Below are positions 21,651-49,216 of a DNA stretch of 64,000 nucleotides, one piece after another. A program made the translations under genes and the position numbers. The stretch spans positions 72,353-136,352 of the forward strand of contig JBHLPH010000003.1 in assembly GCA_048939625.1 (NCBI GenBank). The letters are read 5' to 3'. A model generated the notes under the pieces. It was not told where the DNA came from. It saw only the letters and a program-made list of their open reading frames with translations, and ran no database searches. Source of the DNA: Promethearchaeota archaeon. GTDB lineage: Archaea > Asgardarchaeota > Hermodarchaeia > Hermodarchaeales > Hermodarchaeaceae. Each line of letters opens with the position of its first letter. Positions within the stretch are counted from its first letter, which is position 1.

Positions 21651-21785
21651 GAGTTATTCTACACTTCGTTTGTCCTTTTATCAATAGCTAAAATATAGCT
21701 GTAGGTAAGTAGTTTCCTAGGTTGACAACAAAGTTTTACCCACATCAACTCTAAAATTGGGTTGAAATAAGTGAGGTGCTAGTTG

Positions 21786-22280
21786 ATGCGACAATTTCTC
21801 TATGCGGACCCTACAGTGTGTGTTGGTTGTCGAATCTGTGAAGCCATCTGTAGTCTACATTATGAAAAGACAATAAACCCCAAGAAATCACGTATCCGAG
21901 TACGTCGAGTCAATCCTGGGCTAGATGTAGTTGTTGCTTGCCGAAATTGCGATCAGGCTTGGTGTATTGAAGCGTGTCCAGAGGAAGCTCTACGAAAAAA
22001 TCGGAAAGGGATTGTGATTGTGGATTCGAAGAAATGCAAGGGATGTGGGGCATGTGTGGAGGCATGCCCTTTTGGAGCGATATTCTTGAACCCTGATACA
22101 CAAAAAGCCATCAAATGCATTGCATGTGGATTCTGCACGAAATATTGCCCTGTTGAAACCCTTCGCATTCTGACAGAAGAGGAATTGGCAGCGTTGAAGC
22201 AGCAGAAGGTGATTCAACATGAATGTAGAGATCTCCTTGATGAGCTTAGAATAGAAGAAGCTGAGGGGGGTGAGAGCTGA
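21786..22280 (+). CDS. Multi-[4Fe-4S] electron-transfer subunit of AOR
   Basis: CVGCRICEAIC, CRNC..CIEACP, CKGCGACVEACP, CIAC...CP; overlaps the AOR start. Confidence 0.9.
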   Translation: MRQFLYADPTVCVGCRICEAICSLHYEKTINPKKSRIRVRRVNPGLDVVVACRNCDQAWCIEACPEEALRKNRKGIVIVDSKKCKGCGACVEACPFGAIFLNPDTQKAIKCIACGFCTKYCPVETLRILTEEELAALKQQKVIQHECRDLLDELRIEEAEGGES

Positions 22281-24202
22281 TGGGGAAGAAAGCGAAGCTT
22301 GGTGGATATTCAGGGCAGCAGTTACATGTGGATATGACAAAAGAAACATGTAAGCCGGTCCCAATTGACAAAGATTTAGCTCTCATGTATCTTGGCGGAC
22401 AAGGCTTTGCCTCACGAATTATGTATGATCACGTTGGACCAACAACTGACCCACTGAGTCCTGATAATATCCTCATTTGGGCAACAGGTCCCTTCACGGG
22501 GACATTATGGCCTCAAGCAGCCCGTTATGTTGTAGCAGCTAAATCGCCTTTGACAGGCATCTTTGGTGAAGCCCATTCAGCGGGGCATTGGGGACCCGAA
22601 CTCAAATTCGCAGGGTTTGACACAATCATCGTAACTGGACGGGCAAAAAAACCGCTTTACTTAATTGTTGATAATGGTTCAGCCAGATTAGTCGATGCTC
22701 AGGATCTATGGGGGAGGAATACATCCGAGACTGAAGACATGATTAAAGAAGCGCAAGGTGATCCAAACTTTCGCGTCTCTTGCATCGGGCAAGCAGGAGA
22801 AAATCTTGTCAGATTTGCCGCAATAATCAATGACTATGATCGAGCCGCCGCTCGCTCTGGTATTGGTGCTGTGGCAGGAAGTAAACGGCTCAAAGCAGTT
22901 GCAGTCCGAGGGGGACAAGATATTCCTATTGCGAAGCCTGATCGCTACCTTGATGTAATTGATGAATTGCATCGAAAAATGCTGGCAAGCCCCTTCACGG
23001 CTAGTCGGGCTATGTATGGGACAACTAACTTAGTTGAACTCATGCAAGAAATCGGTCGGCTTCCTAGCTACAATATGCGTTCTGGCGTGTTTGCTGAATA
23101 TCAGAAAATCAGTGGTGAAACAATTCGAAAGAAGTACCTTGTAAAACCACGCGCAGATTTTGCATGTTTACAACGTTGTGGGCGATACACACGGGTCAAA
23201 ACGGGTCCCTATGCTTATTGTGGAGGATCTCCTGAATATGAAACTCAGGCAGCTATGGGGAGTCGATGTGGAAATGATAATCTTGAATCCATTCTCTATG
23301 GACACCATTTAAGCAACCTATATGGGATGGATACGATCTCAACCGGCGCGACTATTAGTTGGGCGATGGAAGCCTGGGAAGAGGGACTTATTACTGCTGA
23401 AGATACAGGCGGCATTGATTTGAGTTGGGGGAACCATGAATCGATTATCAAACTAATCCACATGATCGCGAAACGTGAGGGATTTGGTGACATTTTAGCC
23501 GAAGGGAGTTTCCGTGCTGCACAACGCATTGGAAGAGGTACTGAGAAATTCGTAATGCATTGCAAGAAACAAGAAATCGCTGGACAAGAACCCCGTGCAC
23601 AAAAATCAATGGGATTAGCAGCGGCCACAGCAGCGCGTGGTGCGGATCATCTCTATGCATTTCCTGTTCTTGATGAGGTCGGATTTGATGAAGAAATCGG
23701 AATACGATATGGCACAGAATACCTTCCGGAAATTGGCGACCGCCTTGATCCGAAATATAAGGGCATCATGGTGAAAGAAAATGAAGACTTTTGTGCTGTC
23801 GTTGAATCACTGGGTGTCTGTAAATATGGAACCCTAATTCCTCCTGTCCTCTTTTACGAAGATGTTGTAAAAGCCTTTGATGTGACGGTGGGTGTCGCGA
23901 TAACAGAGAAACAATTACGAGCAATAGGAGAAAGGATCGTCAACCTGAATCGTTGTTTCAATGTGCGTGAAGGTATTCGCCGAAAGGACGACTCATTACC
24001 AGCCCGGCTAACTGATACTCCTGCTCCAGAAGGTCCATCAAAAGGGCAGATAGTCGAATTAGAACAGATGCTCGATGAATACTACGAATTACGTGGATGG
24101 CGACTGAAAGACGGGCTTCCCACTAAGCATGTATTACAGCGTTTAGGGCTTGAAGACTTAATCACTGATCTCGAAAAATATGGTATAATTTTACCTGAAT
24201 AA
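22280..24202 (+). CDS. aor: Aldehyde:ferredoxin oxidoreductase family (W/Mo-pterin)
   Basis: KSPLTG, ELKFAGFD, IGQAGENLVRFA, PEYET, GMDTIS, RGADHL, LDEYYELRGW. Confidence 0.93.
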   Translation: MGKKAKLGGYSGQQLHVDMTKETCKPVPIDKDLALMYLGGQGFASRIMYDHVGPTTDPLSPDNILIWATGPFTGTLWPQAARYVVAAKSPLTGIFGEAHSAGHWGPELKFAGFDTIIVTGRAKKPLYLIVDNGSARLVDAQDLWGRNTSETEDMIKEAQGDPNFRVSCIGQAGENLVRFAAIINDYDRAAARSGIGAVAGSKRLKAVAVRGGQDIPIAKPDRYLDVIDELHRKMLASPFTASRAMYGTTNLVELMQEIGRLPSYNMRSGVFAEYQKISGETIRKKYLVKPRADFACLQRCGRYTRVKTGPYAYCGGSPEYETQAAMGSRCGNDNLESILYGHHLSNLYGMDTISTGATISWAMEAWEEGLITAEDTGGIDLSWGNHESIIKLIHMIAKREGFGDILAEGSFRAAQRIGRGTEKFVMHCKKQEIAGQEPRAQKSMGLAAATAARGADHLYAFPVLDEVGFDEEIGIRYGTEYLPEIGDRLDPKYKGIMVKENEDFCAVVESLGVCKYGTLIPPVLFYEDVVKAFDVTVGVAITEKQLRAIGERIVNLNRCFNVREGIRRKDDSLPARLTDTPAPEGPSKGQIVELEQMLDEYYELRGWRLKDGLPTKHVLQRLGLEDLITDLEKYGIILPE

Positions 24203-24327
24203 AACGACGCAAAACCGACGCGGAAGCAAGGTTTAAATTAAAACCTCATGAGATTGAATTATCCGCGGGGCGTTCTCGGGGCAACCCCTATCACTTGAAT
24301 GGGTCGAAAATAAAGGATTTTGATAAA

Positions 24328-25005
24328 ATGAAAGTACTCGTTACAGGACCGCATTTATCAGGAAAAAGCTACCTCATTAAACAACTCGCTGAAGGGAACG
24401 TAATCAACATTCAGGCAAACGGTACAACAGTTGGCCTTGACCATGGTGTCGCTGAGGTATTTGGAGTTCCTGTTCGTTTGTTTGGTACACCGGGATTAGC
24501 CCGGTTCAAAGTTTTACGTAGAATCATTTCCGAAGGTGCTGATGGCATTATCTTTGTGGTGGATGCAAGTAAACCGGATGGTGATGCTGAAGCCCGTTAT
24601 ATTTGGACAGAAATTAGCGATCTGCTTCCAAACGTTCCCTGTATTGTCGCTGCAAATAAACAGGATTTAAGGGCTTCCAGAACACCCGATAGAATCCGTA
24701 AGGATTTTAGTTTCATGGTCGGTGTTCCTGTAATTCCTATTAGTAATAAAACTGAATACAACTTGGACAAACTGCTTCCAGCTATGGTGATGCTTATTGT
24801 TTATGAATGGAGCCCGATTCTCCGAGCCTTTGGAGCCACAGGAAAAACAGGTTTCGTGAATCTTGCAAAGAATCTTCATGTCAGTGAAAGCCAAGTCCGG
24901 AATTATTTGCGTTGGTTTGAACTTCGAAAATTAGTCATTGTGGACTGGGATAAAGAAACAGCACATGTGGCACCAGGCGTAGTTAAAATCCTTGCCCAAC
25001 GATAA
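24328..25005 (+). CDS. MglA-like small GTPase with C-terminal winged-helix extension
   Basis: VTGPHLSGKS, TTVGLDHG, FGTPG, ANKQD; C-terminal LAKNLHVSESQVRNYLRWFE HTH. Confidence 0.8.
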   Translation: MKVLVTGPHLSGKSYLIKQLAEGNVINIQANGTTVGLDHGVAEVFGVPVRLFGTPGLARFKVLRRIISEGADGIIFVVDASKPDGDAEARYIWTEISDLLPNVPCIVAANKQDLRASRTPDRIRKDFSFMVGVPVIPISNKTEYNLDKLLPAMVMLIVYEWSPILRAFGATGKTGFVNLAKNLHVSESQVRNYLRWFELRKLVIVDWDKETAHVAPGVVKILAQR

Positions 25006-25050
25006 CAAAGTTAAAAGCTTGAACTGTATGCTTGAATCCAGGGAATTAGA

Positions 25051-25824
25051 ATGACAAAAACCGGTCCGGTTTGGAAAAGCATCCTCAAAATCATCGAAGA
25101 CGAAAAGGTTGCCCATTTAACACTAATCGATCCTGACCCTATGAAACAATCCGCTGAAAAAGCAGGTGAGATAGCTAATCTCGCCGAGAAGGCAGGAAGT
25201 AATGGCATCATGGTTGGCGGCTCAACTGCTTTTGGCATTATTGATGAGACAGTGGAAGAGATTAAGAAACACGTTAATATTCCTGTAATTTTATTCCCTG
25301 GGAATGTTTCAGGGCTTTCACATTCGGCGGATGCTGTTTTCTTCATGAGTCTTCTGAATGCTCGAACCACCTACTGGATGATAGATGCTCAAACTCTCGG
25401 GGCGCGTCACATCAAAGGCTATAATATTGAACCCATCTCGATGGCCTACCTTATTGTCCAACCCGGAGGCACCGCAGGATTTGTGGGCGACGCACGACTG
25501 CTCCCTCGGGATAAACCAGAAATCGCACTCGGCTACTCATTAGCCGCGCAGTACATGGGATTCAAATTCATCTATCTTGAAGCCGGTTCTGGTGCTGAAA
25601 ATGCGGTTCCCCTTAACATGATTAAATTAGTTTCGAAAACTATTGATGTTCCCCTAGCTGTTGGTGGAGGAATCTACACCCCCGAGCAGGCAGCCAAAGC
25701 CTCTGCGGCAGGTGCAGATATCATCGTGCAAGGAACTATTATAGAACGCACAATTCTGAAAGATAGGGGCAAGGAGTTATCAGCTACAGTGCAGGCTATG
25801 CGCCAGGCCAAGAAAAGTAGCTAA
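25051..25824 (+). CDS. Geranylgeranylglyceryl phosphate synthase
   Basis: HLTLIDPD, IMVGGST, ILFPG, YLEAGSGA, VGGGI. Confidence 0.95.
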   Translation: MTKTGPVWKSILKIIEDEKVAHLTLIDPDPMKQSAEKAGEIANLAEKAGSNGIMVGGSTAFGIIDETVEEIKKHVNIPVILFPGNVSGLSHSADAVFFMSLLNARTTYWMIDAQTLGARHIKGYNIEPISMAYLIVQPGGTAGFVGDARLLPRDKPEIALGYSLAAQYMGFKFIYLEAGSGAENAVPLNMIKLVSKTIDVPLAVGGGIYTPEQAAKASAAGADIIVQGTIIERTILKDRGKELSATVQAMRQAKKSS

Positions 25825-26140
25825 GAGTCGAATAATACCCCAATAAACTGCTGGCTCCACCACCTATCGGAGGAAATATCGCTACAACATCTCCATCAGT
25901 TAAAGGTGTTTGTAGTCCTTTTTGGAGTCTGATGTGTCGTCCATTAACGAGAACATGGAAATAAGATTTGAGTGAGCCATCAGGTTCTAAGACCATTTTT
26001 TTGAATTTTTCTCCGAATCTTTCACTGAGAATGTCAATGACTTCTTGGACAATTTCTGCTTTGAGTTGGGTTTCTCGGACTCCAGTTAGGGCACGGAGAC
26101 TAGTGAACATGCGAACTGTGACCTGTGGCTTTTTGGTCAT
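25796..26140 (-). CDS. MoaD/SAMP ubiquitin-like protein with a 20-aa extension after the GG
   Basis: VLVNGR...LTDGDVVAIFPPIGG followed by GASSLLGYYSTLSYFSWPGA. Confidence 0.85.
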   Translation of the reverse strand: MTKKPQVTVRMFTSLRALTGVRETQLKAEIVQEVIDILSERFGEKFKKMVLEPDGSLKSYFHVLVNGRHIRLQKGLQTPLTDGDVVAIFPPIGGGASSLLGYYSTLSYFSWPGA

Positions 26141-26155
26141 AGGTTTGTTCTCACC

Positions 26156-27343
26156 TCATCCACTGGTTTGGAAGGAGAGGGCGCGGTGGGGGCAGATGCT
26201 CACACAGACACCGCAGCCATAACAGAGTTCGGAATCCACTTGGGCTTTTTTGGTTTTTGGGTTGACGGCTATTGCAGAATATGTACAGGATTTATTGCAG
26301 AGTCCACAGCCTGAACAGGCTTCTTCATCCACAGTTGGAGGAAGACTTTCGATTCGGAGTGTTTCTTTGGGAAGATGTTTAAGAGCAACACCACGAACGT
26401 CAAGGGGGGAGTCGTGCCCATGGTTTTGGAGGAATTCAGCAATTTCGGTAGCGATGCGTCCATATACGGAGTGACCTTCCAAGATAGCTGCCGTACACAC
26501 TTGGACTGCTGTGGCTCCACACATGAAGAACTCGATGGCATCGGCACCAGTGCTTACTCCACCAACGCCGATGACTGGTTTGGATGTTCCACGGGCAATA
26601 TCTGCAACACAGCGGACCGCGAGTGGTTTGATAGCAGGTCCCGAAAGCCAACCAACGCCTCCCGGACCACCAAGCAGGGGACGCCTTGTTTCGATATCAA
26701 TGTGCAAACAGGGTCCTAGAGTGTTAATTGCAACAAATCCATCAACATATTTCTCGACTGCCTTTGTGAAAATTGTCAGGTCTTTGACATGGGGACTCAT
26801 TTTTGCAAAGACTGGGATTTCGACGGCTTCCTTAATCGTTTTAGCGACTTGGTTGAACACTTTGGGATCTGTTTCAATGTAATGGGTGCTGAATTCTATA
26901 CCGTCGACACCCGCTTTTTCAACAAGAGGAGCAAGTTTCTGCAATTCGTCAGGAGTATAGCCTACAGAGGCAATCAGAGAAAGCCCTGCTTCCTTTGCTC
27001 GAGGGTACTCATGCTTAAGCCATTTTTTAAATGGTTTATCGCTCCAAAGTTCATGGTTCAATAAACCGTACGCACCGCGTACTCGTATTCGTTCAAAATG
27101 AACCACTTGGTTTTGCATGGCTGTAGCAAGAAGCCATTGGCTATGACCACGGTCAAGCGTTTGCATATTAGGTCGGGGAACTTCGGCAGGTTTGATACTG
27201 ATTGTTTTTGCAACTAAGCCACCTACTCCACCTCTAGCCGCCTGGAGTAGCGTCTCCCCATCCCGGCTAGTTGGTCCTGCCGCAGTTAACACGGGGTTTC
27301 GAAGCGGAATACCGGCAATATCAACATTCAAATTTACAGTCAT
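26156..27343 (-). CDS. Dihydropyrimidine/dihydroorotate dehydrogenase-like flavoprotein with 2x[4Fe-4S]; catalytic Cys absent
   Basis: NPVLTAAGP, VAKTI, FAKMSP, AINT, GWLSGPAIKP, GVGGV, VQVCTA; EFSTHY where ELNxSCP is expected. Confidence 0.85.
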   Translation of the reverse strand: MTVNLNVDIAGIPLRNPVLTAAGPTSRDGETLLQAARGGVGGLVAKTISIKPAEVPRPNMQTLDRGHSQWLLATAMQNQVVHFERIRVRGAYGLLNHELWSDKPFKKWLKHEYPRAKEAGLSLIASVGYTPDELQKLAPLVEKAGVDGIEFSTHYIETDPKVFNQVAKTIKEAVEIPVFAKMSPHVKDLTIFTKAVEKYVDGFVAINTLGPCLHIDIETRRPLLGGPGGVGWLSGPAIKPLAVRCVADIARGTSKPVIGVGGVSTGADAIEFFMCGATAVQVCTAAILEGHSVYGRIATEIAEFLQNHGHDSPLDVRGVALKHLPKETLRIESLPPTVDEEACSGCGLCNKSCTYSAIAVNPKTKKAQVDSELCYGCGVCVSICPHRALSFQTSG

Positions 27344-29280
27344 TAATCTTCCACCAATTTACCCATTTTTGCTAAATCGTCTGCAACATCGCTCAATCCC
27401 AATCGGACGAGTTCTGATCGCTTTGGAAGTCCATCTTTTGACCAATTTCGCACCTCATAATACTCGTCAAGCATTGGTTCTAGGTTACACACTTGTCCCT
27501 TTGCAGGACCTTCGGGAATGGGTTCTTCAGTGAAGCGTGGGTGTAGTTGTTCGTTTTCACGGGTTACTCCTTCTCGGACGTTGAAACAACGTCGAAGATT
27601 ACTTATGCGTTCAGCAATTATGCGGAGTTGATTTACGTCCCCAAATTCCTTGATTCCTGTAAGAGGTGCAAGCATCTCAGCAATAAGATCAAAGTAATAG
27701 ATAGGAGGCCACATGCTACCATATTTGCAAAGAATGACACTGTCAATTATCACATACAAATCTTCTTGGTCTTTGATAAGATGCCCTTTGTATGTCGTGC
27801 TGTGTAAATCCATTACGTCAGCAGCATGATCTTCACCGAACCGTTCAATAGCCACGTCAGGAAAACCGAGTTCCTCATAACAACTAAGACTACGTAAGTG
27901 ATCTGCACCGCGAACGTTAGTAGCATAAGTTAGTCCTACACTTTGCTGTGGTCGGGGATCTTGACCTGAGGCTTCGAGCCCTTTCACATGAATGGCAAAC
28001 CGCTCTGCCCCTTTCCCGATTTTCTGAGCTGCCCGCATGGACCCCTCAGCAAGCATGTTTCCAATCCCTTCACGGTGTGCGATTTTTTCGATAAGTGCTA
28101 TTATCGTTTTGTCGTTTCCCCACGACAAGTCAAGTCCATCGGCTTCTTTTGAGGAAATTAACCCGTTTTCAGCTGCTTCCATAAGAAAGGCAATGGTACA
28201 CCCTGTGCTGATGGTGTCTAGCCCATAACGGTTGCAGAGCTGATTCGCATAAAGAATGGACTCAATATTACTATTCAGGCAGTTGCTGCCAAAGGCCATG
28301 AGGGTTTCGTATTCGGGTCCCCCGGTTTTAACTTTGTAGGGACCTGATTTGACCTGAGACGTAAACTTACATTGTAAGGCGCATCCAAAGCAGGCTTCTC
28401 TGCTTGTACGGTAATGCTTCCGAATAGTTTCGGGACCAATGGCGTCAGCGTCTGGGTAAACACCAGTGGTATGGTTCTTTGTGGGAAGTCGTCCAATTTC
28501 CCCGATAGCGGTAACTAGATTTGTGGTTCCGTATTTTCCTAGGGATTCTTCGTTCATTTCTCCCCATTTTCCCGTTGTTGTCTGTTCGAAGGCTTTGCGG
28601 GAAGCTGCAAGGAATTTTCCATGCTGTGCAATTTGGACTCCACCCAACCCGCGGGCAGCAATCGCTTTGAGATGTTTACTTCCCATTACAGCACCCCCGC
28701 CCGCGCGTCCAGCTGCCCGATAATACGAACCAATAATTGCAGCGTACTTAACCAGGTTTTCTCCAGCTATACCAATGGATGCGACTTCAATATCATTGTC
28801 GCCATGCTCTTTTTTGATGAGATCGGTAGTTTCGGTTGTGTCACGAGTCCAAAGATGCGAAGCATCCAGAATCTTCACATCTTTATTCTGAACCATAAGG
28901 TAGACGGGATTGGGTGCTTTGCCATGAATAAGTAGCATATCAAACCCCGCATATTTCAGTTGAGGTCCCCAATGTCCTCCACAATGTGCTTCGCCCCATA
29001 CACCAGTTAGGGGTGATTTGAACGCTACCATGAAACGCCCAGAAGGCGAGAAGAATGCTCCTGTAACGGGACCAACACCAAATATCAGAGGGTTCTTCGG
29101 ATCAAGAGGATCGGTTCCAGGTTTAACTCGTTCCCACAGGATTCGTGAAGCAAAGCCCGTTCCCCCGAGATAACCTTTCGCAAAATCACGATCCAAAGGC
29201 AGTATTTCAACCTTAGAATTTGTCAAATCAATATCCGCGATTCGACCAGCGTATCCATAATAAACGTCTTCCTTACTCAT
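27343..29280 (-). CDS. aor: Aldehyde:ferredoxin oxidoreductase family (second paralog)
   Basis: KSPLTG, LKYAGFD, GAVMGSK, CFGC...C, GPEYET, GLDTIS, RGADHL. Confidence 0.93.
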   Translation of the reverse strand: MSKEDVYYGYAGRIADIDLTNSKVEILPLDRDFAKGYLGGTGFASRILWERVKPGTDPLDPKNPLIFGVGPVTGAFFSPSGRFMVAFKSPLTGVWGEAHCGGHWGPQLKYAGFDMLLIHGKAPNPVYLMVQNKDVKILDASHLWTRDTTETTDLIKKEHGDNDIEVASIGIAGENLVKYAAIIGSYYRAAGRAGGGAVMGSKHLKAIAARGLGGVQIAQHGKFLAASRKAFEQTTTGKWGEMNEESLGKYGTTNLVTAIGEIGRLPTKNHTTGVYPDADAIGPETIRKHYRTSREACFGCALQCKFTSQVKSGPYKVKTGGPEYETLMAFGSNCLNSNIESILYANQLCNRYGLDTISTGCTIAFLMEAAENGLISSKEADGLDLSWGNDKTIIALIEKIAHREGIGNMLAEGSMRAAQKIGKGAERFAIHVKGLEASGQDPRPQQSVGLTYATNVRGADHLRSLSCYEELGFPDVAIERFGEDHAADVMDLHSTTYKGHLIKDQEDLYVIIDSVILCKYGSMWPPIYYFDLIAEMLAPLTGIKEFGDVNQLRIIAERISNLRRCFNVREGVTRENEQLHPRFTEEPIPEGPAKGQVCNLEPMLDEYYEVRNWSKDGLPKRSELVRLGLSDVADDLAKMGKLVED

Positions 29281-29783
29281 TTCTTGGAACCTCCGGTGAT
29301 GATGTGAAGATAATCGGCTGCTCTTTTCACGCCTTTCTCCCTAAGTCGGGCCGTTAATCCACTTGGTTCAAGATACAATATCGCTCCACGAGGACAAAAT
29401 TGAGCGCACATCGCATACCCCTCACATAAATCGCATTTCACGGTACGACCATCCGTTGTATCAATATGGATACCCCCAAATGGACAGGCAATAAGACATT
29501 GATGACAACCAATACAATTCTCCTGATTGATACAAACGGCATTCGTCTGGGGATTACGATAAATCGCATCTGCAGGGCAACTTTCCATACAGAGAGGAAC
29601 CTCACAATGTTGGCAGATTACTGGGATGTTTACTCCACTTTTTTCATCACGTATAATAGTGAGGAGCGCACGGGAAGGGTTGTATTCCTTGTTATGTCGG
29701 AAGGAGCAGACGAGCGTGCATATGCCACAGCCCGTGCATTTCTCTGGGTCGACAACTAGAACCTTATGCGATAACTTGTTCAT
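29277..29783 (-). CDS. Multi-[4Fe-4S] subunit of AOR
   Basis: Four Cys clusters (CTGCGICTLVC, CQHC..CMESCP, CIGCHQCLIACP, CDLC..CAQFCP). Confidence 0.9.
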   Translation of the reverse strand: MNKLSHKVLVVDPEKCTGCGICTLVCSFRHNKEYNPSRALLTIIRDEKSGVNIPVICQHCEVPLCMESCPADAIYRNPQTNAVCINQENCIGCHQCLIACPFGGIHIDTTDGRTVKCDLCEGYAMCAQFCPRGAILYLEPSGLTARLREKGVKRAADYLHIITGGSKK

Positions 29784-29877
29784 AGAAATTCACGCCTTGA
29801 AAAATGGGACATAGAAGCCTTAAAGGGTTACTCGATTACCATTATTCACCCATTCGGTTTGTTTGGAGTGTATTATT

Positions 29878-31209
29878 ATGCGTACACTGATAAAAAACGC
29901 ATTAATTGTCACGATGGATCCAAAGCGACGTGTCCTCCCCAATGCTGACCTTCTAATTGAGGATACGCATATCGCAGCAGTTGGTCCTAATCTGAAGGAC
30001 TCTGCTGACAGGGTCGTTGATGCCACCGGTCGTATATTGTTGCCTGGATTCATTTGTGGTCACACCCACCTCTATGGGATCATGCTTCGTGGAGCCCCCC
30101 TGGACATCAAACCTACAACTGATTTTCTCCAGATTCTCGACCGTATATGGTGGAAAGTGGATTCAGCATTTGTCAACGAGGACGCTTATGCAAGTGCCTT
30201 AGCCTCCTGTTTTGAGTTTATTCGTAGCGGGACCACATGTTTTGCCGACACCTATTCAGGACCAGGTTCAATTGAGGGAGTTTTAGATGCTGTTGCAAAA
30301 GGTGTCACAGAAACAGGGATGCGAGGAATCTTGGCTTTCGAGGCAACAGAAAGGAATTCAAAAGAAGAAGGTGAACGTGGACTCAAAGAGAATGTCCGCT
30401 TTCTCAAAAAGCTCCAGAAAAAACCGAATGAGCTTCTTTCTGGAATGTATAGCCTCCACGCTTCTTTCACATTGAGTGATGAACTTATTCAAAAGACCCG
30501 CGAACAGGCTGACCAGTTACCTGCCCCACTTACTATTCATACTAGCGAAGGACTCATCGATGTGTATCATAATATCGAAAGATATGACAAACGCACCGTT
30601 GAGCGCCTGTTTGATTTGGGACTACTTGGATCTGATGTGATATTAGCCCACTGTGTTCATGTTAATCATGACGAGTTACAACTCATTAAAGCTAGTGGAG
30701 CCACAGTTGCCCATAACCCCATGAGCAACATGAATAACGCAGTTGGTGTGACCCCCGTCAAAGAAATGTATGAATTGGGTATACCGGTGTGTTTAGGCAA
30801 TGATGGATTCATCTTCGATGCCATTGAAAATATTCGCACGGCTTATCTCATACATAAGGTTCATCACCTCGATACACGTGTAACAACTCCACAGCAAGTC
30901 ATTGAGATGGCTACGATTAATGGGGCGCAAGTCTACGGACTTGGAGATAAGTTAGGATCCATCGAACCAGGGAAAATGGCAGATTTAGTAATACTCCACC
31001 CCAATCCACGAATTACCCCATTACTTCCAACTGGAGTTTATGGATATATTGTGTATGGTTGCACCGCACATGACGTAGAGCATGTTTTCGTGAACGGTAA
31101 GAAGGTTGTAGAAAATCACCAAGTAGTTTCTGTCGATGCAGAAATTGTGGAAAAGGCGCTTGGACGCGTCGTACCAACGCTTTGGGAAAAACTTGGAATC
31201 GACCTCTAA
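29878..31209 (+). CDS. ssnA: SsnA-like amidohydrolase
   Basis: CGHTHLY...RG...DFLQILDRIWWKVD, GTT, SIEG, FEATERN...ENVRF and LHASFTLSD parallel E. coli SsnA motifs (recalled, not aligned). Confidence 0.75.
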   Translation: MRTLIKNALIVTMDPKRRVLPNADLLIEDTHIAAVGPNLKDSADRVVDATGRILLPGFICGHTHLYGIMLRGAPLDIKPTTDFLQILDRIWWKVDSAFVNEDAYASALASCFEFIRSGTTCFADTYSGPGSIEGVLDAVAKGVTETGMRGILAFEATERNSKEEGERGLKENVRFLKKLQKKPNELLSGMYSLHASFTLSDELIQKTREQADQLPAPLTIHTSEGLIDVYHNIERYDKRTVERLFDLGLLGSDVILAHCVHVNHDELQLIKASGATVAHNPMSNMNNAVGVTPVKEMYELGIPVCLGNDGFIFDAIENIRTAYLIHKVHHLDTRVTTPQQVIEMATINGAQVYGLGDKLGSIEPGKMADLVILHPNPRITPLLPTGVYGYIVYGCTAHDVEHVFVNGKKVVENHQVVSVDAEIVEKALGRVVPTLWEKLGIDL

Positions 31210-31493
31210 AGTACTCCTCCAGCTACAGGTGGAAATAAAGCAACGACATCGCCATCTGTGAGAGGTGTTTCAAGACCCTTAAGAAGATGAAGCCCTCGGC
31301 CATTTAGTAAGACTTTGATGTACCTGCGAAGTTGACCATTTTCATCAAAAATGATATTGCAAAATTTCTGCCCCCGTTCTTCACAGAGTTGGCTGAGTAA
31401 ATCACTCACGGTGCGCCCTTTGAAATTCACTGTTAATTGATGAAAACCGAATTGATCAGAAAATGGCCCAATTGTTCTAACGGAAACGTGCAT
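31206..31493 (-). CDS. MoaD/SAMP ubiquitin-like protein ending GG-VL
   Basis: VLLNGR...LTDGDVVALFPPVAGGVL*. Confidence 0.88.
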   Translation of the reverse strand: MHVSVRTIGPFSDQFGFHQLTVNFKGRTVSDLLSQLCEERGQKFCNIIFDENGQLRRYIKVLLNGRGLHLLKGLETPLTDGDVVALFPPVAGGVL

Positions 31494-31609
31494 CTATTAG
31501 ATTCTCCGATTCGGCAAAGGTTTGGCGCTAGATAAACATGCTGGTATCCTTCTTCTTTGAGAAACCCAATCCTTAATAAGAATAAATCGCATGCTCACTG
31601 CTGATTCCC

Positions 31610-33001
31610 ATGGCAGATTTGATTATTGATGAGGCAACTGTCATAACCGTGGATCCAAAACGACGTATTATTTCCGATGGAGCAGTAGTTGTGGAAGACC
31701 AACGGATTATCGCTGTTGGAAAATCTCATGAAATCAAACAGAAGTTTAGTGCTGACACAAGGATATCAGGAAAGAACAAGATACTCATCCCGGGTCTCAT
31801 TGACTGTCACGTACACCTTGCTCAAGCCCTGATTCGTGGAACTGCTGACGATGTGGATCTAATTCCCTGGCTTCGTGATTACGTTTGGGTTTTACAGGGT
31901 AACTTTACACCTTCAGACGGGAAGGTAAGTGCAGAACTTTGCATTGCCGAGATGCTAAAATCAGGAACTACGAGTTTTCTTGAAAGTATGATTCATAAAC
32001 GGTATGGGATGGATGGAATAGCTCAGGTCGTTGAAAAAACTGGTATTCGTGGTTGCCTCTCGAAACTTTTCATGGATTGGACTGGATATGCTGATGAAGA
32101 AGCGATTATGTATGAGGGGATGATTGAAGATCCTGAGGAGTGCATCGCTGAAACTGTATCGATGCATAACAAGTGGCAAGGCGCTGCGGATGGTCGAATC
32201 TTTATTTGGTGGGGAGCTCGGACACCTGGTGCGGTTAGCCCTGAATTGTATCGCCGTGTTGCTGAGTTAGCCCGGAAACGCCATATGGGAATTACCATGC
32301 ACCTCGGTGAGGTAAAAGAAGACGTCGAGTATACAAAGGCACAGTTCAATCAGCTGCCTGCAGAATTCGCACGCGATGTAGGGATGATGGGTGATAACGT
32401 CGTGTTAGTACATGGGGTCTGGATCACTCCTGAGGAATTCCCGATTTATGTTGAGACTGGAACTCACATGTGTCACTGTCCAGCAAGTAATTCTAAGCTT
32501 GCTTCAGGCATTGCGCTTATCCCCGAAATGCTTGCAGCGGGTATCAATGTTTGTTTGGGTTGTGATGGAGGACCTAGTAATAACGCCTATGATATGTTCC
32601 GAGAAATGTTTCTGGCGGCAGTAATCCATAAAGCACGAACACTGGATCCCCTGACAATGCCAGCTGAAACCGTTTTAGAAATGGCTACGATTAATGGTGC
32701 AAAAGCCATTGGAATGGAAAAAGAGATTGGAAGTATTGAAATTGGAAAACGAGCAGACTTGGTACTAATAGATACAACTCAACTAAACCTTGCTCCAACA
32801 TACAATCCTGTGAGTAATATTATCTATGCAGCGAATGGCTTCAATGTGTATACTACAATCGTGAATGGGCAAATCCTTGTTCATGAAGGAAAACTTCTGA
32901 TCATGGATGAAGAGAAAGTTATCGAAACCGCAAGAAAACACGGAGAACAACTTCTCGAACGAGCAGAAGTTGAAATTCAAAGTCGATGGAAAACAGAGTG
33001 A
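31610..33001 (+). CDS. Amidohydrolase, TrzA/AtzA/MtaD-like deaminase (HxHxxQ type)
   Basis: DCHVHLAQ, MHLGE, HGVW, HCPASNSKL, LGCDG. Confidence 0.88.
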   Translation: MADLIIDEATVITVDPKRRIISDGAVVVEDQRIIAVGKSHEIKQKFSADTRISGKNKILIPGLIDCHVHLAQALIRGTADDVDLIPWLRDYVWVLQGNFTPSDGKVSAELCIAEMLKSGTTSFLESMIHKRYGMDGIAQVVEKTGIRGCLSKLFMDWTGYADEEAIMYEGMIEDPEECIAETVSMHNKWQGAADGRIFIWWGARTPGAVSPELYRRVAELARKRHMGITMHLGEVKEDVEYTKAQFNQLPAEFARDVGMMGDNVVLVHGVWITPEEFPIYVETGTHMCHCPASNSKLASGIALIPEMLAAGINVCLGCDGGPSNNAYDMFREMFLAAVIHKARTLDPLTMPAETVLEMATINGAKAIGMEKEIGSIEIGKRADLVLIDTTQLNLAPTYNPVSNIIYAANGFNVYTTIVNGQILVHEGKLLIMDEEKVIETARKHGEQLLERAEVEIQSRWKTE

Positions 33002-33153
33002 ACTACCTTTGTAAGATTGCAGGGGTTTTCATCGAGTCCCCCTCAATTCAAAATTAGCGTGATAGCAGATTAATTCTTTAAAGCGATTCAATTAAATTGA
33101 AAAGATTAAAAGGACCTCTCGATTTAGTCGCAGTAATTCAAGGTGACTCAAAT

Positions 33154-34215
33154 ATGGGTGTTAATATAGTTGGTAAATACCATGGCCGTGATTGGTTGAC
33201 TATCCAGGAATGGAGCCAAGAAGATTTACAAACGTTGATTGATGCAGCAATCGAAATAAAAGAGCTGCAAAAGGCACGAAAACCCCATGATTATCTTGCC
33301 AGACAAACCTTGTTTATGATTTTCTTCAATCGATCTTTACGAACTCGAAACTCATTCGAGGCAGGCATGACTCAAATGGGTGGTCACGCCCATTTCCTCT
33401 CTCCGCAGGATGTTTATCGACCTGCTCTGCCTGATGATGAAGAAGCATATACCAGTGAAAGGATTTCAGATGTAGCACGAGTTCTAGCACGGATGGGCGA
33501 TGGGATTGCGATTCGCATTTATGGATCACACGCTAAGTGGATTTATGGTCGCGGTCACCGCATTCTTCGTGAATTTGCTAAATGGTCAGATATTCCCATT
33601 ATTAACATGGAAGATGACGTTTATCATCCCTGCCAAGCGATGGCGGACATGCAAGCTATTCAAGAACATTCACCCAATGTGCAAGGAAAAAAGTTCGTCA
33701 TGAGTTGGGCCTATAGCCCGAGTACGCAAAAACCACTTGCTGTTCCACAGAGTGGGATATTGATGGGTACTAAATGGGGAATGGATACGGTATTGGCTCA
33801 TCCAAAAGGCTTTGAACTGGATCCGAAAATCATTGAGATGTGTGAGAAAAACGTTGCCGAGTATGGAGGGTCCTTTGAAATAACTAATGATATGGAGGAA
33901 GCTTTCGCTGGTGCTCATTACGTATATCCAAAGTGTTGGACAAGTAAACATCACATTCCTCCGATTGCTCCCGCCGAGGACTGGGAGGGCGCTAAGAAGC
34001 TATTTGAAGCAAATAAGGATTGGATTGCGACTCCAGCGAAAATGGATCTTGGAGCAAAAGGCGTCAAGTATATGCATTGTTTACCAGCGGATCGGGGGTT
34101 TGAAGTAGCCGATGAAGTCTTAGATGGCAAATGGAGCATCGCGTTTGATGAAGCTGAAAATCGACTCCATACTCAGAAAGCCATTATGGCTGCAATTATG
34201 GGTCAACCCCAGTAA
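33154..34215 (+). CDS. Carbamoyltransferase, YgeW/AOTCase-like (knotted) type
   Basis: SLRT, HPCQ, SWAYSPSTQKPLAVPQS (YgeW has WAYSPSYGKPLSVPQG), YPKCW, HCLP, EAENRLH. Confidence 0.88.
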   Translation: MGVNIVGKYHGRDWLTIQEWSQEDLQTLIDAAIEIKELQKARKPHDYLARQTLFMIFFNRSLRTRNSFEAGMTQMGGHAHFLSPQDVYRPALPDDEEAYTSERISDVARVLARMGDGIAIRIYGSHAKWIYGRGHRILREFAKWSDIPIINMEDDVYHPCQAMADMQAIQEHSPNVQGKKFVMSWAYSPSTQKPLAVPQSGILMGTKWGMDTVLAHPKGFELDPKIIEMCEKNVAEYGGSFEITNDMEEAFAGAHYVYPKCWTSKHHIPPIAPAEDWEGAKKLFEANKDWIATPAKMDLGAKGVKYMHCLPADRGFEVADEVLDGKWSIAFDEAENRLHTQKAIMAAIMGQPQ

Positions 34216-34230
34216 TAGGTGCACGCAGAT

Positions 34231-35250
34231 TTAGAGCAAGTTATCCTCGCTCATTACTAACGAGAGAAGCCCCTTCTGTAGATGCAACCGATTCTCTGCC
34301 TGATCAAAGATAACACTTTGAGGGCTGTCGACAACTTCGTCAGTGGCTTCCTCACCACGAAAGACAGGAAGACAATGCATATAGATAGCATCTTTGCTAG
34401 CTAAATCCATAAGTTCGGAATTACAAATCCAGTCTTGATATTTCTCATGGAGTTGGGCTTCCGTTTCTTCCCCCCATTTATCTATGCCGACGGCTGAGCA
34501 TTCTGCACTCATCCATGACCGCGGATAGACAACGTGAGCACCCGAGTATGCATCTTTGATATTATTGGTTATGGAAAAGTCGCCGCCAGACTCATGGGCA
34601 TTTTGATGACACCATTCCATAATTTCCGGGTCTAATTCGAAACCCGGAGGATGAGCAAGCGTAACATCCATTCCAAATCGTGTAGCCGTTAGAATAGCAC
34701 TCTGCACACTACACCATGAGCGGGAGTGACGGCTATATGCCCATGAAAATAAGAACTTCTTTCCTTGTATTTTCGGAAATTTCTCTTGTACTGTCATCAG
34801 GTCGGTGAGCGATTGGCAGGGATGAAACTTGTCATCTGCCATATTGATAATGGGTATGTCAGAATATTTAGCATAGTCACGTAAGACTTGGTTGCCCCGT
34901 CCATAGATGTATCCAACCGCTTTTTCAAGAATACGAATACCGATACCGTGACCATATCGAGCTAGTGTGTTCGCAGTGTCTTTCACACTTTCTCCTTCAC
35001 CAAGTCGCATCGCACCAGGTTCAAGGAATTGCGCGTGTCCACCTAGTTCGGTTAAAGCCGCTTCAAAGCTGGCGCGAGTTCGTGTGCTGGTATTGTAAAA
35101 AAGCATGAAAAACGTCTTATCCGATAAAAGGTGTGGCGATTTTCCTGCCTTGGTTTTTTTCTTCAAATCTTTTGCGAATCTGAGAACTGCTTCGAGTTCT
35201 TCTCTAGTCCACTCCTGGGTGGTTATCATGTCTCGGCCACGAAGATCCAT
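34231..35250 (-). CDS. Second carbamoyltransferase paralog (convergent)
   Basis: STRT, HPCQ, SWAYS, YPRSW, HCLP, QAENRLH. Confidence 0.88.
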   Translation of the reverse strand: MDLRGRDMITTQEWTREELEAVLRFAKDLKKKTKAGKSPHLLSDKTFFMLFYNTSTRTRASFEAALTELGGHAQFLEPGAMRLGEGESVKDTANTLARYGHGIGIRILEKAVGYIYGRGNQVLRDYAKYSDIPIINMADDKFHPCQSLTDLMTVQEKFPKIQGKKFLFSWAYSRHSRSWCSVQSAILTATRFGMDVTLAHPPGFELDPEIMEWCHQNAHESGGDFSITNNIKDAYSGAHVVYPRSWMSAECSAVGIDKWGEETEAQLHEKYQDWICNSELMDLASKDAIYMHCLPVFRGEEATDEVVDSPQSVIFDQAENRLHLQKGLLSLVMSEDNLL

Positions 35251-38034: not shown

Positions 38035-39297
38035 TTAATTCTGGAGGTCAAGAGCGTTCTGGAGTTGTTTTAAGTCGGCATCAATTACTGGTGGTTTAGG
38101 CATTCGCTGGATCACTACATCCTGATCTTTTAATCCGCCACCAGTAGCCTCTATTAAGATTGTTTCTGAGGGATCTTGCTCTCCAGAGTCTAGCTGGTCA
38201 ATGAGACCTGCAAGACCTGTGACGCCTGTGGGTTCTGCGAAAATTCCTTCATACTTGGCGAGTAATTGTTGAGCTTGAAGAATGGCATCATCTTCAACTG
38301 CAATTGCACAACCCTTGGATTTCCGAATGGCGTTGAGCGCCAAATCGCCATCCCAAGGTAAGGGATCACATAACCCTTCAGCTACGCTATGTGGTGAGGC
38401 ACACGGAATAATCTTGAAAGGATCCTGGTTAGTACGAAACGCCTGAACCAAAGGAGCACACCCTGCTGCTTGGACTGCGACCATTCGTGGACGTGTTTTA
38501 ACAAGTCCAAGGGTATGAAAATCGCTAAATCCGCGCCATTGACCTCCTAAAAGGCCCCCCGCCCCCACTTGGACATAGGTTACGTCTGGAACCTCCCATT
38601 CTAATTGTTCAAGGATTTCATATCCGAGTGTTTTAGGACCTTCAGCCTGATAGGGATTGAAAGGGCCAAAGCTAGGACAAGGCGTCCAGCCATAACTGGA
38701 GCACGCTTCACGGAGAAGTTTCACGGTTGGATCATCACCTTTATGTAATCCCCGTAAACGAACGACTTTCGCGCCGTATAACAGTAATTGTGCAATTTTT
38801 CCCATAGGAGCGATATCGGGTACAAAGCAATAACATGTAAATCCGGCTCGAGCACAATAAGCCGCTAATGCAGCAGCAGCATTGCCGCTACTGGCCGATG
38901 CAAGGGTGGTAGCTCCTTGTTCTTTCGCTTTGGACACACCAACCGTCATTGGTCGATCTTTGAAAGACCATGTGGGATTACGCGTTTCGTCCTTTATGTA
39001 TAGTTCACGGAGTCCTAGTTTCTTCGCGAGTCGTTTGCTACGAAGAAGTGGAGTTCCACCTTCACCAAGGCTTATGATATTTGCACGATTTTCGATTGGG
39101 AGTAATTCAAAGTAGCTCCAAACACCTAATGGTCGATTTGCCAGACTTTTCTTTGTAATAACTTCCCTAAGACGAATGTAATCATAATGAATATCAATGC
39201 GTGCTTCACAGCCATGGGTCTTACAAAAGAATGGATTTTCGGAGAGGTTATACTTAGCGCCACATTTCGGACATCGTAGGTGAGTGACATAGGACAA
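38035..39297 (-). CDS. thrC: Threonine synthase-like PLP enzyme
   Basis: N-terminal Zn knuckle, LGEGGTPL, NPTWSFKDR, ASSGNA, EGIFAEP, TGGGLK. Confidence 0.85.
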   Translation of the reverse strand: MSYVTHLRCPKCGAKYNLSENPFFCKTHGCEARIDIHYDYIRLREVITKKSLANRPLGVWSYFELLPIENRANIISLGEGGTPLLRSKRLAKKLGLRELYIKDETRNPTWSFKDRPMTVGVSKAKEQGATTLASASSGNAAAALAAYCARAGFTCYCFVPDIAPMGKIAQLLLYGAKVVRLRGLHKGDDPTVKLLREACSSYGWTPCPSFGPFNPYQAEGPKTLGYEILEQLEWEVPDVTYVQVGAGGLLGGQWRGFSDFHTLGLVKTRPRMVAVQAAGCAPLVQAFRTNQDPFKIIPCASPHSVAEGLCDPLPWDGDLALNAIRKSKGCAIAVEDDAILQAQQLLAKYEGIFAEPTGVTGLAGLIDQLDSGEQDPSETILIEATGGGLKDQDVVIQRMPKPPVIDADLKQLQNALDLQN

Positions 39298-46055: not shown

Positions 46056-46061
46056 ATTTTT

Positions 46062-47384: not shown

Positions 47385-47403
47385 AAATGGAGGGAAACAA
47401 TAC

Positions 47404-49129: not shown

Positions 49130-49216
49130 AATAATTACCCACTACTCATACGTAACAAGAAGTAGAAAAAGAATAGGAAAAAAGAAAGATTGGCGCCCGC
49201 CAAAGCGGACGCTTGT

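Follow-up and report, generated by a model that had tools for sequence, protein, structure and literature searches.

An anaerobic route for the breakdown of purines and urate was worked out in 2025, in gut bacteria only, and it depends on selenium/molybdenum enzymes of the xanthine dehydrogenase (XDH) type (PMC12507026; bioRxiv 10.1101/2025.04.24.650524). In this reductive route urate is converted to 2,8-dioxopurine by XdhD/DOPDH and the ring is dearomatised by YgfK; SsnA and HyuA open both rings to give 2,3-diureidopropionate; YgeW, with YqeA making ATP, and YgeY strip the ureido groups, and YgeX takes the product to pyruvate (PMC12507026; bioRxiv 10.1101/2025.04.24.650524). The E. coli cluster consists of xdhD-ygfM, ygfK, ssnA, hyuA, ygeW-yqeA and ygeY as well as ygeX, and a variant found in C. 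difficile has UacX, a protein of the DHO_dh type, and UacY (PMC12507026; bioRxiv 10.1101/2025.04.24.650524). Neither of these two papers mentions archaea or tungsten enzymes, and a full-text literature search of open-access papers and bioRxiv found no description of an archaeal purine pathway or of one linked to the aldehyde ferredoxin oxidoreductase (AOR) family. The present analysis concerns a group of genes at 21.8-39.3 kb of a 64,000-nucleotide stretch of DNA from a Promethearchaeota archaeon (the window; contig C38, positions 72353-136352). Judged from its gene content and gene order, it is fairly probable that the genes of this region make up a single system for the catabolism of purine-type N-heterocycles, namely an archaeal form of the reductive uric-acid/2,8-dioxopurine pathway that works without XDH.

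The locus and the systems it resembles

The genome comprises 2.31 Mb in 83 contigs and is 87.6% complete. The closest database proteins to those of the window are labelled Asgard (Promethearchaeota, Hermod-, Hod- and Thorarchaeota). Window genes were called from a listing of open reading frames (ORFs) together with Pfam and NCBIfam scans, and every gene named in a preliminary description of this DNA was found at the position given there. The genes of the proposed system are as follows.

21783-22280, plus strand: FeS1, polyferredoxin subunit of the first AOR pair, 165 aa, with multiple 4Fe-4S dicluster Pfam matches
22280-24202, plus strand: AOR1, AOR-family W/Mo-pterin enzyme, 640 aa, with AFOR_N and AFOR_C
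25796-26140, minus strand: MoaD1, MoaD/ThiS-fold protein, 114 aa, matching TIGR01687 (moaD_arch) with 75.4 bits
26156-27343, minus strand: PreA-like protein, candidate ring reductase, 395 aa, with a PF01180 DHO_dh FMN barrel and a C-terminal 2x[4Fe-4S] Fer4 region
27343-29280, minus strand: AOR2, AOR-family W/Mo-pterin enzyme, 645 aa, with AFOR_N and AFOR_C
29277-29783, minus strand: FeS2, AorA-like 4x[4Fe-4S] subunit, 168 aa, with Fer4 Pfam matches and four 4Fe-4S motifs
29863-31209, plus strand: SsnA-like amidohydrolase, candidate ring-opener, 448 aa, whose best NCBIfam model is SsnA
31206-31493, minus strand: MoaD2, MoaD/ThiS-fold protein, 95 aa, matching TIGR01687 with 64.2 bits
31610-33001, plus strand: DadD-like HxHxxQ amidohydrolase of the deaminase type, 463 aa, with Amidohydro_1
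33097-34215 (likely start ATG 33154), plus strand: CTaseA, supernumerary carbamoyltransferase, with OTCace_N and OTCace
34231-35250, minus strand: CTaseB, second supernumerary carbamoyltransferase, 339 aa, with OTCace_N and OTCace
38035-39297, minus strand: ThrC-type fold-type II pyridoxal phosphate (PLP) enzyme, 420 aa, matching the threonine-synthase model NF006050

FeS2 is the first gene of a minus-strand operon with the order FeS2, AOR2, PreA-like, MoaD1. The ends of FeS2 and AOR2 overlap by 4 nt and those of AOR2 and the PreA-like gene by 1 nt, and these three genes are therefore read as translationally coupled. The end of FeS1 overlaps the start of AOR1. The SsnA-like gene is divergent from the FeS2 operon across a gap of 79 bp, and the genes for CTaseA and CTaseB are convergent.

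The system resembles the bacterial 2,8-dioxopurine pathway in having a metal-pterin redox enzyme and candidates for an FMN ring reductase, for ring openers of the SsnA and hydantoinase types, and for a carbamoyltransferase with a carbamate kinase for ATP, and the likely order of the steps is alike. The PreA-like protein, like C. difficile UacX as that protein has been described, is of the DHO_dh type without an NAD(P)H domain, and because the reductase has no such domain a low-potential Fe-S supply of electrons is implied. Unlike the bacterial pathway, the system has no XDH-family gene but two FeS+AOR pairs, one of them in an operon with the reductase. The SsnA-like protein falls in a sister clade and is not an orthologue within the bacterial family, and two carbamoyltransferase paralogues are found where bacteria have YgeW and the YgeY amidase. 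There is also no YgeX, a ThrC-type PLP enzyme recurs, and the genes are spread over several loci in this genome. That the pathway is of a purine type, reductive and with steps that yield carbamoyl phosphate, is likely, and synteny, phyletic patterns and phylogeny lend this part of the reading good support.

Synteny, phyletic distribution and the XDH family

A scan with an SsnA alignment, with one genome per species, gave 574 relatives, and the best 80 of the 574 were taken for neighbourhood annotation against a reference set. These 80 come from Hadarchaeota, Bathyarchaeia, Caldarchaeales and other Nitrososphaerota, Desulfurococcales, Geothermarchaeota and Asgard lineages. The phyletic survey of the Asgard lineages covered 301 genomes. 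Genome counts across related lineages are descriptive and do not amount to statistical proof; related genomes are not independent samples. All trees were built with FastTree, and their supports are SH-like only.

The cluster genes belong together. The whole arrangement is kept in close relatives, among them a genome labelled Hodarchaeota whose PreA-like protein is 86% identical, and the FeS2-AOR2-PreA-like-MoaD operon recurs in Hermod/Hod, Thor and Heimdall-type lineages as well as in Nitrososphaerota, Geothermarchaeota and Hadarchaeota. The order FeS2-AOR2-PreA-like with overlapping or near-abutting gene ends is seen in Hod, Thor, the Asgard family f14, Nitrososphaerota and Geothermarchaeota. 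In a genome of family f14, FeS2-AOR2 is divergent from a series of genes in the order SsnA-like, a second amidohydrolase, PreA-like, FeS, MoaD, AOR, FeS1 and AOR1. A Heimdall-labelled genome has PreA-like divergent from SsnA-like, then DadD-like, MoaD, FeS and AOR, and in GCA_027491915 the genes are CTaseA, a Bmp-type (nucleoside-type) ABC transporter and FeS2-AOR2-PreA-like-FeS-AOR-hydantoinase-like-AOR1. Among 20 Thor genomes of many genera, FeS2-AOR2 lies beside PreA-like in 19 and is flanked by DadD-like orthologues (50-61% identity) in 18; the same genomes have the run MoaD-hydantoinase-like-FeS1 (19/20) and AOR1 (18/20).

The PreA-like gene adjoins the SsnA-like gene here and in about 20 of the 80 archaeal SsnA-like loci. 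Of 46 PreA-like loci, 30 have an AOR of the cluster clades within 5 kb and 15 have one directly upstream of PreA-like, and 14 loci without one so close come from Hadarchaeota and Desulfurococcales. The genome holds 10 AOR-family genes in 2.3 Mb, so that an AOR would be expected within 5 kb of any given gene about 4% of the time. The adjacency within the cluster is thus not due to chance, because orthologous AOR clades flank PreA-like in those 30 of 46 loci, which belong to several phyla.

Three marker genes are also gained or lost together between sister genera. PreA-like is present in 14 of 14 genomes of this genus, SsnA-like in 13 of 14 and CTaseA in 14 of 14, and none of the four genomes of a sister genus in the same family has them. 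All five Asgard families with PreA-like also have SsnA-like. Outside the Asgard lineages, Hadarchaeota loci have a hydantoinase-like gene divergent from SsnA-like and PreA-like. A Desulfurococcaceae locus has the full set (hydantoinase-like, CTaseA, SsnA-like, PreA-like, CTaseB, DadD-like and XdhBCA), and another locus in Desulfurococcales has, in this order, hydantoinase-like, DadD-like, CTaseB, CTaseA, ArcC, SsnA-like, PreA-like, ThrC-like and YgeY-like genes. Co-occurrence across genomes had been proposed in the preliminary description as a check, and the genes do co-occur and co-localise in many genomes and phyla.

It could be argued that the genes are unrelated neighbours, namely an aldehyde-detoxifying AOR operon, nucleoside-salvage deaminases and anabolic carbamoyltransferases. 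The ten AOR copies in the genome, the best hidden Markov model (HMM) names of the carbamoyltransferases, which are those of (acetyl)ornithine carbamoyltransferase, and the interspersed housekeeping genes (a small GTPase, GGGP synthase, TatD and GlmS) would fit such a view. However, the same orthologous groups are syntenic and co-occur in at least five archaeal phyla, ArgF, PyrB, PyrC and PyrD are encoded elsewhere, a relative has a carbamoyltransferase-carbamate kinase operon, and three marker genes have been gained or lost together between sister genera. A chance neighbourhood is therefore very improbable.

XDH-family genes and AOR pairs alternate beside the SsnA-like gene. In the best 80 of the 574 SsnA relatives, XdhABC lies beside SsnA-like in 12 loci, AOR pairs in 6 and both in none. 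The XDH-family domain PF02738, which also covers many non-purine enzymes, has no match in this genome (87.6% complete), and it is found in 0 of 18 and 0 of 76 genomes of two Asgard families that carry AOR2 and PreA-like. It is present in 19 of 21 genomes of an Asgard family that has SsnA-like and the carbamoyltransferases without PreA-like, and in one further Asgard family XDH lies directly beside SsnA-like. A strict mutual exclusion of XDH and the Gln-type AORs described below fails, since Hadarchaeota genomes hold both. Because of this failure at the level of whole genomes, the argument for replacement is drawn from local synteny and the Asgard families only, and the complementarity of XDH and AOR is local, not universal. 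The earlier proposal that an AOR may take the place of the XDH-family enzyme thus keeps the local alternation (12 against 6 loci), a dedicated AOR clade and the missing XDH of the AOR-type Asgard families, and it loses its generality in Hadarchaeota. That the AORs do the job of an XDH-family enzyme is a possibility given slightly less than even weight.

AOR-family enzymes and the PreA-like reductase

AOR1, AOR2 and a third enzyme, AOR3, form one clade (support 91) apart from the seven other AOR paralogues of the genome. The AOR1 clade has a support of 100%, and each of the AOR subgroups spans several phyla. In known AORs four second-shell residues are conserved, Thr243, Glu313, Tyr427 and His448 in P. 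furiosus numbering (PMC12096430). It has been proposed that Tyr427 positions the aldehyde, and the known exceptions accompany changed or lost activity (PMC12096430). The cluster AORs retain Thr243, Glu313 and His448, and the position of Tyr427 is Gln in 59 of 59 of them (AOR1, AOR2 and AOR3); for AOR1 the figure is 22 of 22 orthologues. The same Gln occurs in 5 Hadarchaeota homologues with 46-52% identity, two of which adjoin CTaseB-like or PreA-like genes. More distant AOR homologues have no Gln at this position, and the other AOR paralogues of this genome carry Tyr, His or Trp there. In AOR1 the first Cys of the CxxCxxxC motif is Asp in 21 of 22 orthologues; a 3Cys+1Asp cluster ligation has been described for WOR5/ASOR (PMC12096430). 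AOR2 keeps CxxCxxxC and the distal Cys ligand. The dedicated clade, the Gln at position 427, the Asp ligand of AOR1 and the distribution of the XDH family in the Asgard families argue that the cluster AORs are specialised parts of a pathway and not generic aldehyde scavengers.

The AOR3 group is represented by a third FeS+AOR pair of the Gln427-type clade at contig C78, 16131-18594. Its neighbours (an aspartyl-tRNA synthetase, a small GTPase, a FAD-binding protein, an acyl-CoA dehydrogenase fusion and an aldehyde dehydrogenase) are unrelated, and this pair is hence uninformative as evidence from context. Altogether the ten AORs carry four different residues (Tyr, His, Trp and Gln) at the Tyr427 position, and this small genome may accordingly encode tungsten enzymes of several functional classes.

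FeS2 has 16 Cys that are invariant in 21 orthologues. In loci of Thor, f14 and Nitrososphaerota, AOR1 comes after an FeS1 orthologue (43-59% identity), and in Thor genomes AOR1 sits in a MoaD-hydantoinase-like-FeS1-AOR1 run. The FeS2 operon follows the design of the aorABCDE operon of Aromatoleum aromaticum, which encodes AorA with its four 4Fe-4S clusters, the tungsten subunit AorB, the FAD protein AorC and the MoaD-like maturation factors AorD and AorE (PMC6365974). The order of a 4x[4Fe-4S] subunit, a W-pterin AOR, a flavoprotein and a MoaD-like protein is the same as in AorABC (PDB 8c0z). The solved structures nearest to AOR2 are AORs sensu stricto, with 454 bits to 9mqx, 418 to 1aor and 382 to 8c0z (chain 8c0z_A). 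Unlike AorABC, the third gene encodes an FMN barrel of the PreA/dihydropyrimidine dehydrogenase (DPD) type with two 4Fe-4S clusters and not the FAD/NAD-binding AorC, Gln replaces the conserved Tyr427, and the genomic partners are nucleobase-type amidohydrolases. A complex prediction for FeS2 and the PreA-like protein with 21-row alignments gave a score of 0.00, which is no verdict and was used neither way.

The PreA-like protein shares with PreA/DPD and class 1B dihydroorotate dehydrogenase the FMN (beta/alpha)8 barrel and a conserved Lys and Asn, and with PreA/DPD the C-terminal 2x[4Fe-4S] region. It differs from PreA/PreT and DPD in its score on the PreA model (195 bits against a cut-off of 335), in having no PreT partner (none adjoins it in the window ORF list) and in its active site, where NxSCPH and about 12 residues are deleted and an invariant EFSTHY is found instead. 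Its chemistry may differ from that of DPD because the loop with the catalytic Cys is gone and EFSTHY stands in its place. Comparison with E. coli YgfK showed no meaningful similarity beyond the Fe-S motifs. A DHO_dh-type reductase in the place of YgfK is known in bacteria, namely UacX of C. difficile, and experiments have shown SsnA and UacX to act as a pair in the pathway of C. difficile (PMC12507026).

The true PreA of the genome (432 bits) is encoded on contig C61, and by these scores the PreA-like protein of the window is an extra paralogue beside it. Contig C61 has, at 41200-50300, a complete canonical reductive pyrimidine cluster that is separate from the system studied here. In addition to PreA it encodes a class-III aminotransferase, a CN-hydrolase (beta-ureidopropionase-like), a dihydropyrimidinase (495 bits) and an M20 deacylase.

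To our knowledge, molybdoenzymes of the xanthine-oxidase family are the only ones described to date that perform oxygen-atom transfer on purine ring carbons. Substitution of an XDH by an AOR would be chemically plausible, as in both families a carbon at the formyl/carboxyl oxidation level gains or loses an oxygen atom. By analogy, C2, C6 and C8 of a purine would be carbons of this kind, cyclic formamidine or amide carbons, and three such carbons would fit two or three AOR types per cluster. It is tentatively proposed that the Gln427 AOR clade carries out oxygen-atom transfer on purine ring carbons, that FeS2, AOR2 and the PreA-like protein form one ferredoxin-linked, Fe-S-wired complex, and that the carbamoyltransferases yield up to two ATP per purine.

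A different role for the AORs has to be weighed here. The pathway could be of the purine type and the AORs could be an electron-input module only, which oxidises ordinary aldehydes or H2 and feeds the PreA-like protein through the polyferredoxin, with no hydroxylase or dehydroxylase step. AOR2 is among the AORs sensu stricto by similarity and retains three of the four second-shell residues, and the PreA-like protein has no partner that binds NAD(P)H, while its translation is coupled to that of AOR2. AorABC has the same FeS wiring to a flavoprotein and can use H2 (PMC6365974). Hadarchaeota and Desulfurococcales have SsnA-like and PreA-like without an adjacent AOR, and Hadarchaeota also hold XDH-family genes. 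However, an electron-input module would leave unexplained why each cluster has two or three anciently diverged AOR clades, why the AOR1 pair sits with the hydantoinase-like gene and not with PreA-like, and why Tyr427 is changed to Gln throughout the clade at the residue proposed to position the aldehyde. The XDH-free lineages would also be left without an enzyme for the hydroxylation or dehydroxylation that every characterised version of the pathway needs. The electron-input role is regarded as fairly unlikely and yet as a serious rival reading.

In the preliminary description the two small proteins beside the AOR genes were named small archaeal modifier proteins (SAMPs). That name is not retained, as the proteins match the MoaD-like maturation genes of aorABCDE operons. 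MoaD1 and MoaD2 both score above the TIGR01687 cut-off of 49.5 (75.4 and 64.2 bits); they also exceed the cut-off of the SAMP1 model, MoaD1 with 65 bits against 60. MoaD1 has the last position in its operon, like aorD/aorE of A. aromaticum (PMC6365974), and MoaD2 is kept in the genus and in Hod relatives. Because the operon order matches that of aorABCDE with its MoaD-like AorD/E, both proteins are probably MoaD-type maturation factors of the W/pterin cofactor. Both proteins run on beyond Gly-Gly. MoaD1 reads PPIGGG and then has a tail of 19 residues, overlapping the convergent GGGP synthase gene at its end, its orthologue in a Hod relative has only 95 residues, and MoaD2 ends in AGGVL, that is, Gly-Gly and then 2 residues. 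C-terminal processing may be needed, or the stop of MoaD1 may have been lost.

Ring opening, carbamoyl transfer and the proposed pathway

Aligned over its full length, the SsnA-like protein has 31% identity to E. coli SsnA (E 2e-65). In a tree of 150 sequences the archaeal SsnA-like clade is sister to a 108-member bacterial clade that includes E. coli SsnA, with a joint support of 96; the bacterial SsnA clade is itself 100%-supported and the archaeal clade lies outside it. The DadD-like and GuaD deaminases fall outside the SsnA grouping (support 100). The best model for the DadD-like protein is 5'-deoxyadenosine deaminase, with 418 bits and thus below the cut-off of 522. In several Heimdall/Hod-type Asgard genomes a PLDc_2 phospholipase-D-like protein of about 450-500 residues adjoins the SsnA-like gene.

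It had been pointed out earlier that the window has neither a hydantoinase nor a carbamate kinase, and both were located elsewhere in the genome, on contigs C61 and C81, respectively. The D-hydantoinase/dihydropyrimidinase that exceeds its cut-off (495 bits) is the one inside the canonical pyrimidine cluster on C61. This genome would use the C61 hydantoinase unless a dedicated gene lies in the missing 12% of the genome. A second hydantoinase-like match, on contig C44, was rejected as a member of the pathway; it is PyrC beside PyrD and biosynthetic.

CTaseA and CTaseB are extra paralogues, since the canonical ArgF (423 bits) and PyrB (383 bits) lie on other contigs, C35 and C41, and PyrC and PyrD are on C44. 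The carbamoyl-phosphate motifs SxRTR, HPxQ and HCLP are present in both, as in the 'knotted' carbamoyltransferases YgeW and N-acetylornithine carbamoyltransferase (AOTCase), for which PDB 3q98 and 3kzc were the reference structures. The ornithine-binding motif DxxxSMG is missing, with KCWTS and RSWMS in CTaseA and CTaseB where the ArgF of the genome has DVFVSMG. CTaseA has a SWAYSPS..KPL.VPQ insert in common with E. coli YgeW. The best HMM models of both are those of N-acetylornithine/ornithine carbamoyltransferase, at about or below cut-off (on the AOTCase model CTaseA has 288.4 bits against a cut-off of 288, and CTaseB 281.9). By raw score Xanthomonas AOTCase and P. furiosus ornithine carbamoyltransferase (OTC) come first among the solved structures, with about 230 bits, and YgeW has about 150. 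In a tree rooted on aspartate carbamoyltransferase (ATC), which has a long YgeW branch and a reference set without AOTCase, N-succinylornithine (SOTCase) and putrescine (PTCase) carbamoyltransferases, YgeW is grouped with the clades of CTaseA (support 95) and CTaseB (96), and this grouping, outside which OTC and ATC fall, has a support of 98%. Unlike YgeW and AOTCase, CTaseA and CTaseB make up two distinct clades of ancient origin, and their genes are usually neighbours.

The CTaseB clade spans Asgard lineages, Nitrososphaerota, Thermoproteota and Bathyarchaeia and often adjoins ArcC, the carbamate kinase. A CTaseB-ArcC-CTaseA operon is found in a Heimdall/Hod-type Asgard genome, and a second arrangement of this type is SsnA-like..CTaseA-MFS transporter-ArcC-CTaseB. 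The preliminary description had asked whether the carbamoyltransferases are anabolic. They are probably catabolic and not enzymes of arginine or pyrimidine synthesis, because a carbamoyltransferase beside a carbamate kinase is the signature of an ATP-yielding enzyme, and the position of ArgF and PyrB elsewhere and the missing DxxxSMG agree with this. The context with a carbamate kinase, like that of YgeW-YqeA, is catabolic. The carbamate kinase of this genome is on contig C81 and scores 365.6 bits against a cut-off of 358.25. As a phyletic tracker of the system carbamate kinase was discarded, as arcC is present in 226 of 301 Asgard genomes and only the local operon with a carbamoyltransferase is informative.

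Some details of these genes may be added. The longest ORF of CTaseA starts with TTG at 33097 and has about 19 extra residues that are missing from all orthologues, whose alignments begin near residue 23-27, and the ATG at 33154 is the more likely start. In one Heimdall/Hod-type genome an AhpC/TSA peroxiredoxin and an MFS transporter lie between SsnA-like, CTaseA and ArcC. On contig C81, at 76533-78451, the carbamate kinase is divergent from a PLP enzyme resembling serine/threonine dehydratases, which best matches threo-3-hydroxy-L-aspartate ammonia-lyase (426 bits, cut-off 452). This enzyme is a possible candidate for the partner that deaminates diaminopropionate.

The PLP enzyme at 38 kb had been noted earlier as a fold-type II enzyme. 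Its score identifies it as ThrC-type (NF006050, 351 bits against a cut-off of 303) and not as YgeX, and it is the sole ThrC above cut-off in the genome. In at least 12 of the 80 archaeal loci, and in three genomes besides, a ThrC-type orthologue is the direct neighbour of SsnA-like or of the carbamoyltransferases. From this synteny the ThrC-type enzyme is a plausible stand-in for YgeX.

Several observations weigh against a purine pathway of the kind proposed here. The SsnA-like protein scores 385 bits on the SsnA model, below the cut-off of 444. Likewise CTaseA and CTaseB reach only 148-175 bits on the YgeW models against cut-offs of 453-500. The earlier comparison with YgeW holds as regards the tree and the insert of CTaseA, and on this evidence the two are old paralogous clades related to YgeW and not YgeW equivalogs, "YgeW-like" only in a broad sense. 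The best match to the YgeX model TIGR03528 in the genome has 37 bits against a cut-off of 532, and the lone M20 candidate, on C61, scores 116 bits on the YgeY model, whose cut-off is 321. The ThrC-type enzyme may simply be the threonine synthase of the genome. The hydantoinase-like gene of the Thor clusters has no orthologue in this genome (87.6% complete), and in Thor genomes SsnA-like and the carbamoyltransferases are far from the AOR module. The resemblance of AOR2 to genuine AORs is about as close as that of those enzymes among themselves, and with Thr243, Glu313 and His448 kept it may carry out ordinary aldehyde or acid chemistry. To these are added the deleted catalytic loop of the PreA-like protein and the Hadarchaeota genomes that hold both XDH and Gln-type AORs.

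Some of these points would also fit the same logic (reduction, ring opening and phosphorolysis of ureido groups) applied to a different N-heterocycle, such as a pyrimidine, a pterin, a hydantoin, a modified base or a compound of the creatinine type; a pyrimidine or pterin had already been named as an alternative in the preliminary description. None of SsnA-like, PreA-like and the carbamoyltransferases falls within the curated families of the purine pathway, and the active site of PreA-like is rebuilt. However, a canonical reductive pyrimidine cluster is already present on C61, and the SsnA-like protein is sister to the SsnA of the purine pathway. Other archaea join the gene set to XdhABC and to a deaminase of the purine-deaminase superfamily, and one cluster has the Bmp nucleoside-type transporter. 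Another heterocycle is thus considered improbable as the substrate, more so than the electron-input role discussed above.

In the purine pathway that is preferred here, the DadD-like deaminase would first convert aminopurines to oxopurines. FeS1-AOR1 and FeS2-AOR2 would then carry out oxygen-atom transfer on ring carbons (C-H hydroxylation and/or lactam dehydroxylation), as XdhA/XdhD/DOPDH do in bacteria. Electrons would pass between the 4x[4Fe-4S] subunits and ferredoxin, and in the coupled FeS2-AOR2-PreA-like unit also directly between subunit and reductase, and MoaD1 and MoaD2 would serve the maturation of the AOR pterin cofactor. The PreA-like FMN/Fe-S protein would dearomatise the ring in the manner of UacX/YgfK. 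A purine might then be both prepared and dearomatised in a single complex, with the tungsten site wired to the FMN reductase through one Fe-S chain. The SsnA-like protein would open the six-membered ring and a hydantoinase the five-membered ring; in Thor the latter has an in-cluster gene, and here only the C61 candidate is available. CTaseA and CTaseB would phosphorolyse the ureido groups to carbamoyl phosphate, from which the C81 carbamate kinase would make ATP. Finally, a PLP enzyme, either the ThrC-type enzyme at 38 kb or the dehydratase-like enzyme beside arcC, may free pyruvate and ammonia from the C3 remnant.

The distribution of these genes suggests an anaerobic purine route in many uncultured archaea, namely Thor-, Hermod- and Hod/Heimdall-type Asgard lineages, Hadarchaeota, Nitrososphaerota, Bathyarchaeia and Desulfurococcales, and it suggests that some of them would run the route with tungsten-type AOR enzymes instead of the XDH type. 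If this is true, nucleic-acid bases would be a source of energy and nitrogen for these archaea in sediments and the subsurface. If the AORs act on the heterocycle, aldehydes, sulfonates and benzoyl-CoA would no longer mark the limits of the known chemistry of the AOR family, and a function would be assigned to a large uncharacterised AOR clade marked by a single active-site substitution. In metabolic reconstructions of Asgard archaea, names such as 'aldehyde ferredoxin oxidoreductase', 'PreA', 'ornithine carbamoyltransferase' and 'threonine synthase' may mislead.

Two other features of the window were noted. A small Ras/Arf-like GTPase and a PcrB/GGGP synthase are encoded between AOR1 and the AOR2 operon (24295-25824, plus strand). 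The same insertion is present in the Hodarchaeota-labelled relative, and Thor genomes have, in contrast, a MoaD-hydantoinase-like pair ahead of FeS1-AOR1. A gene at 40178-43681 on the plus strand, which follows closely downstream of the ThrC-type gene, encodes a 1167-aa protein with a transglutaminase core, Ig-like domains and a TgpA-type N-terminus.

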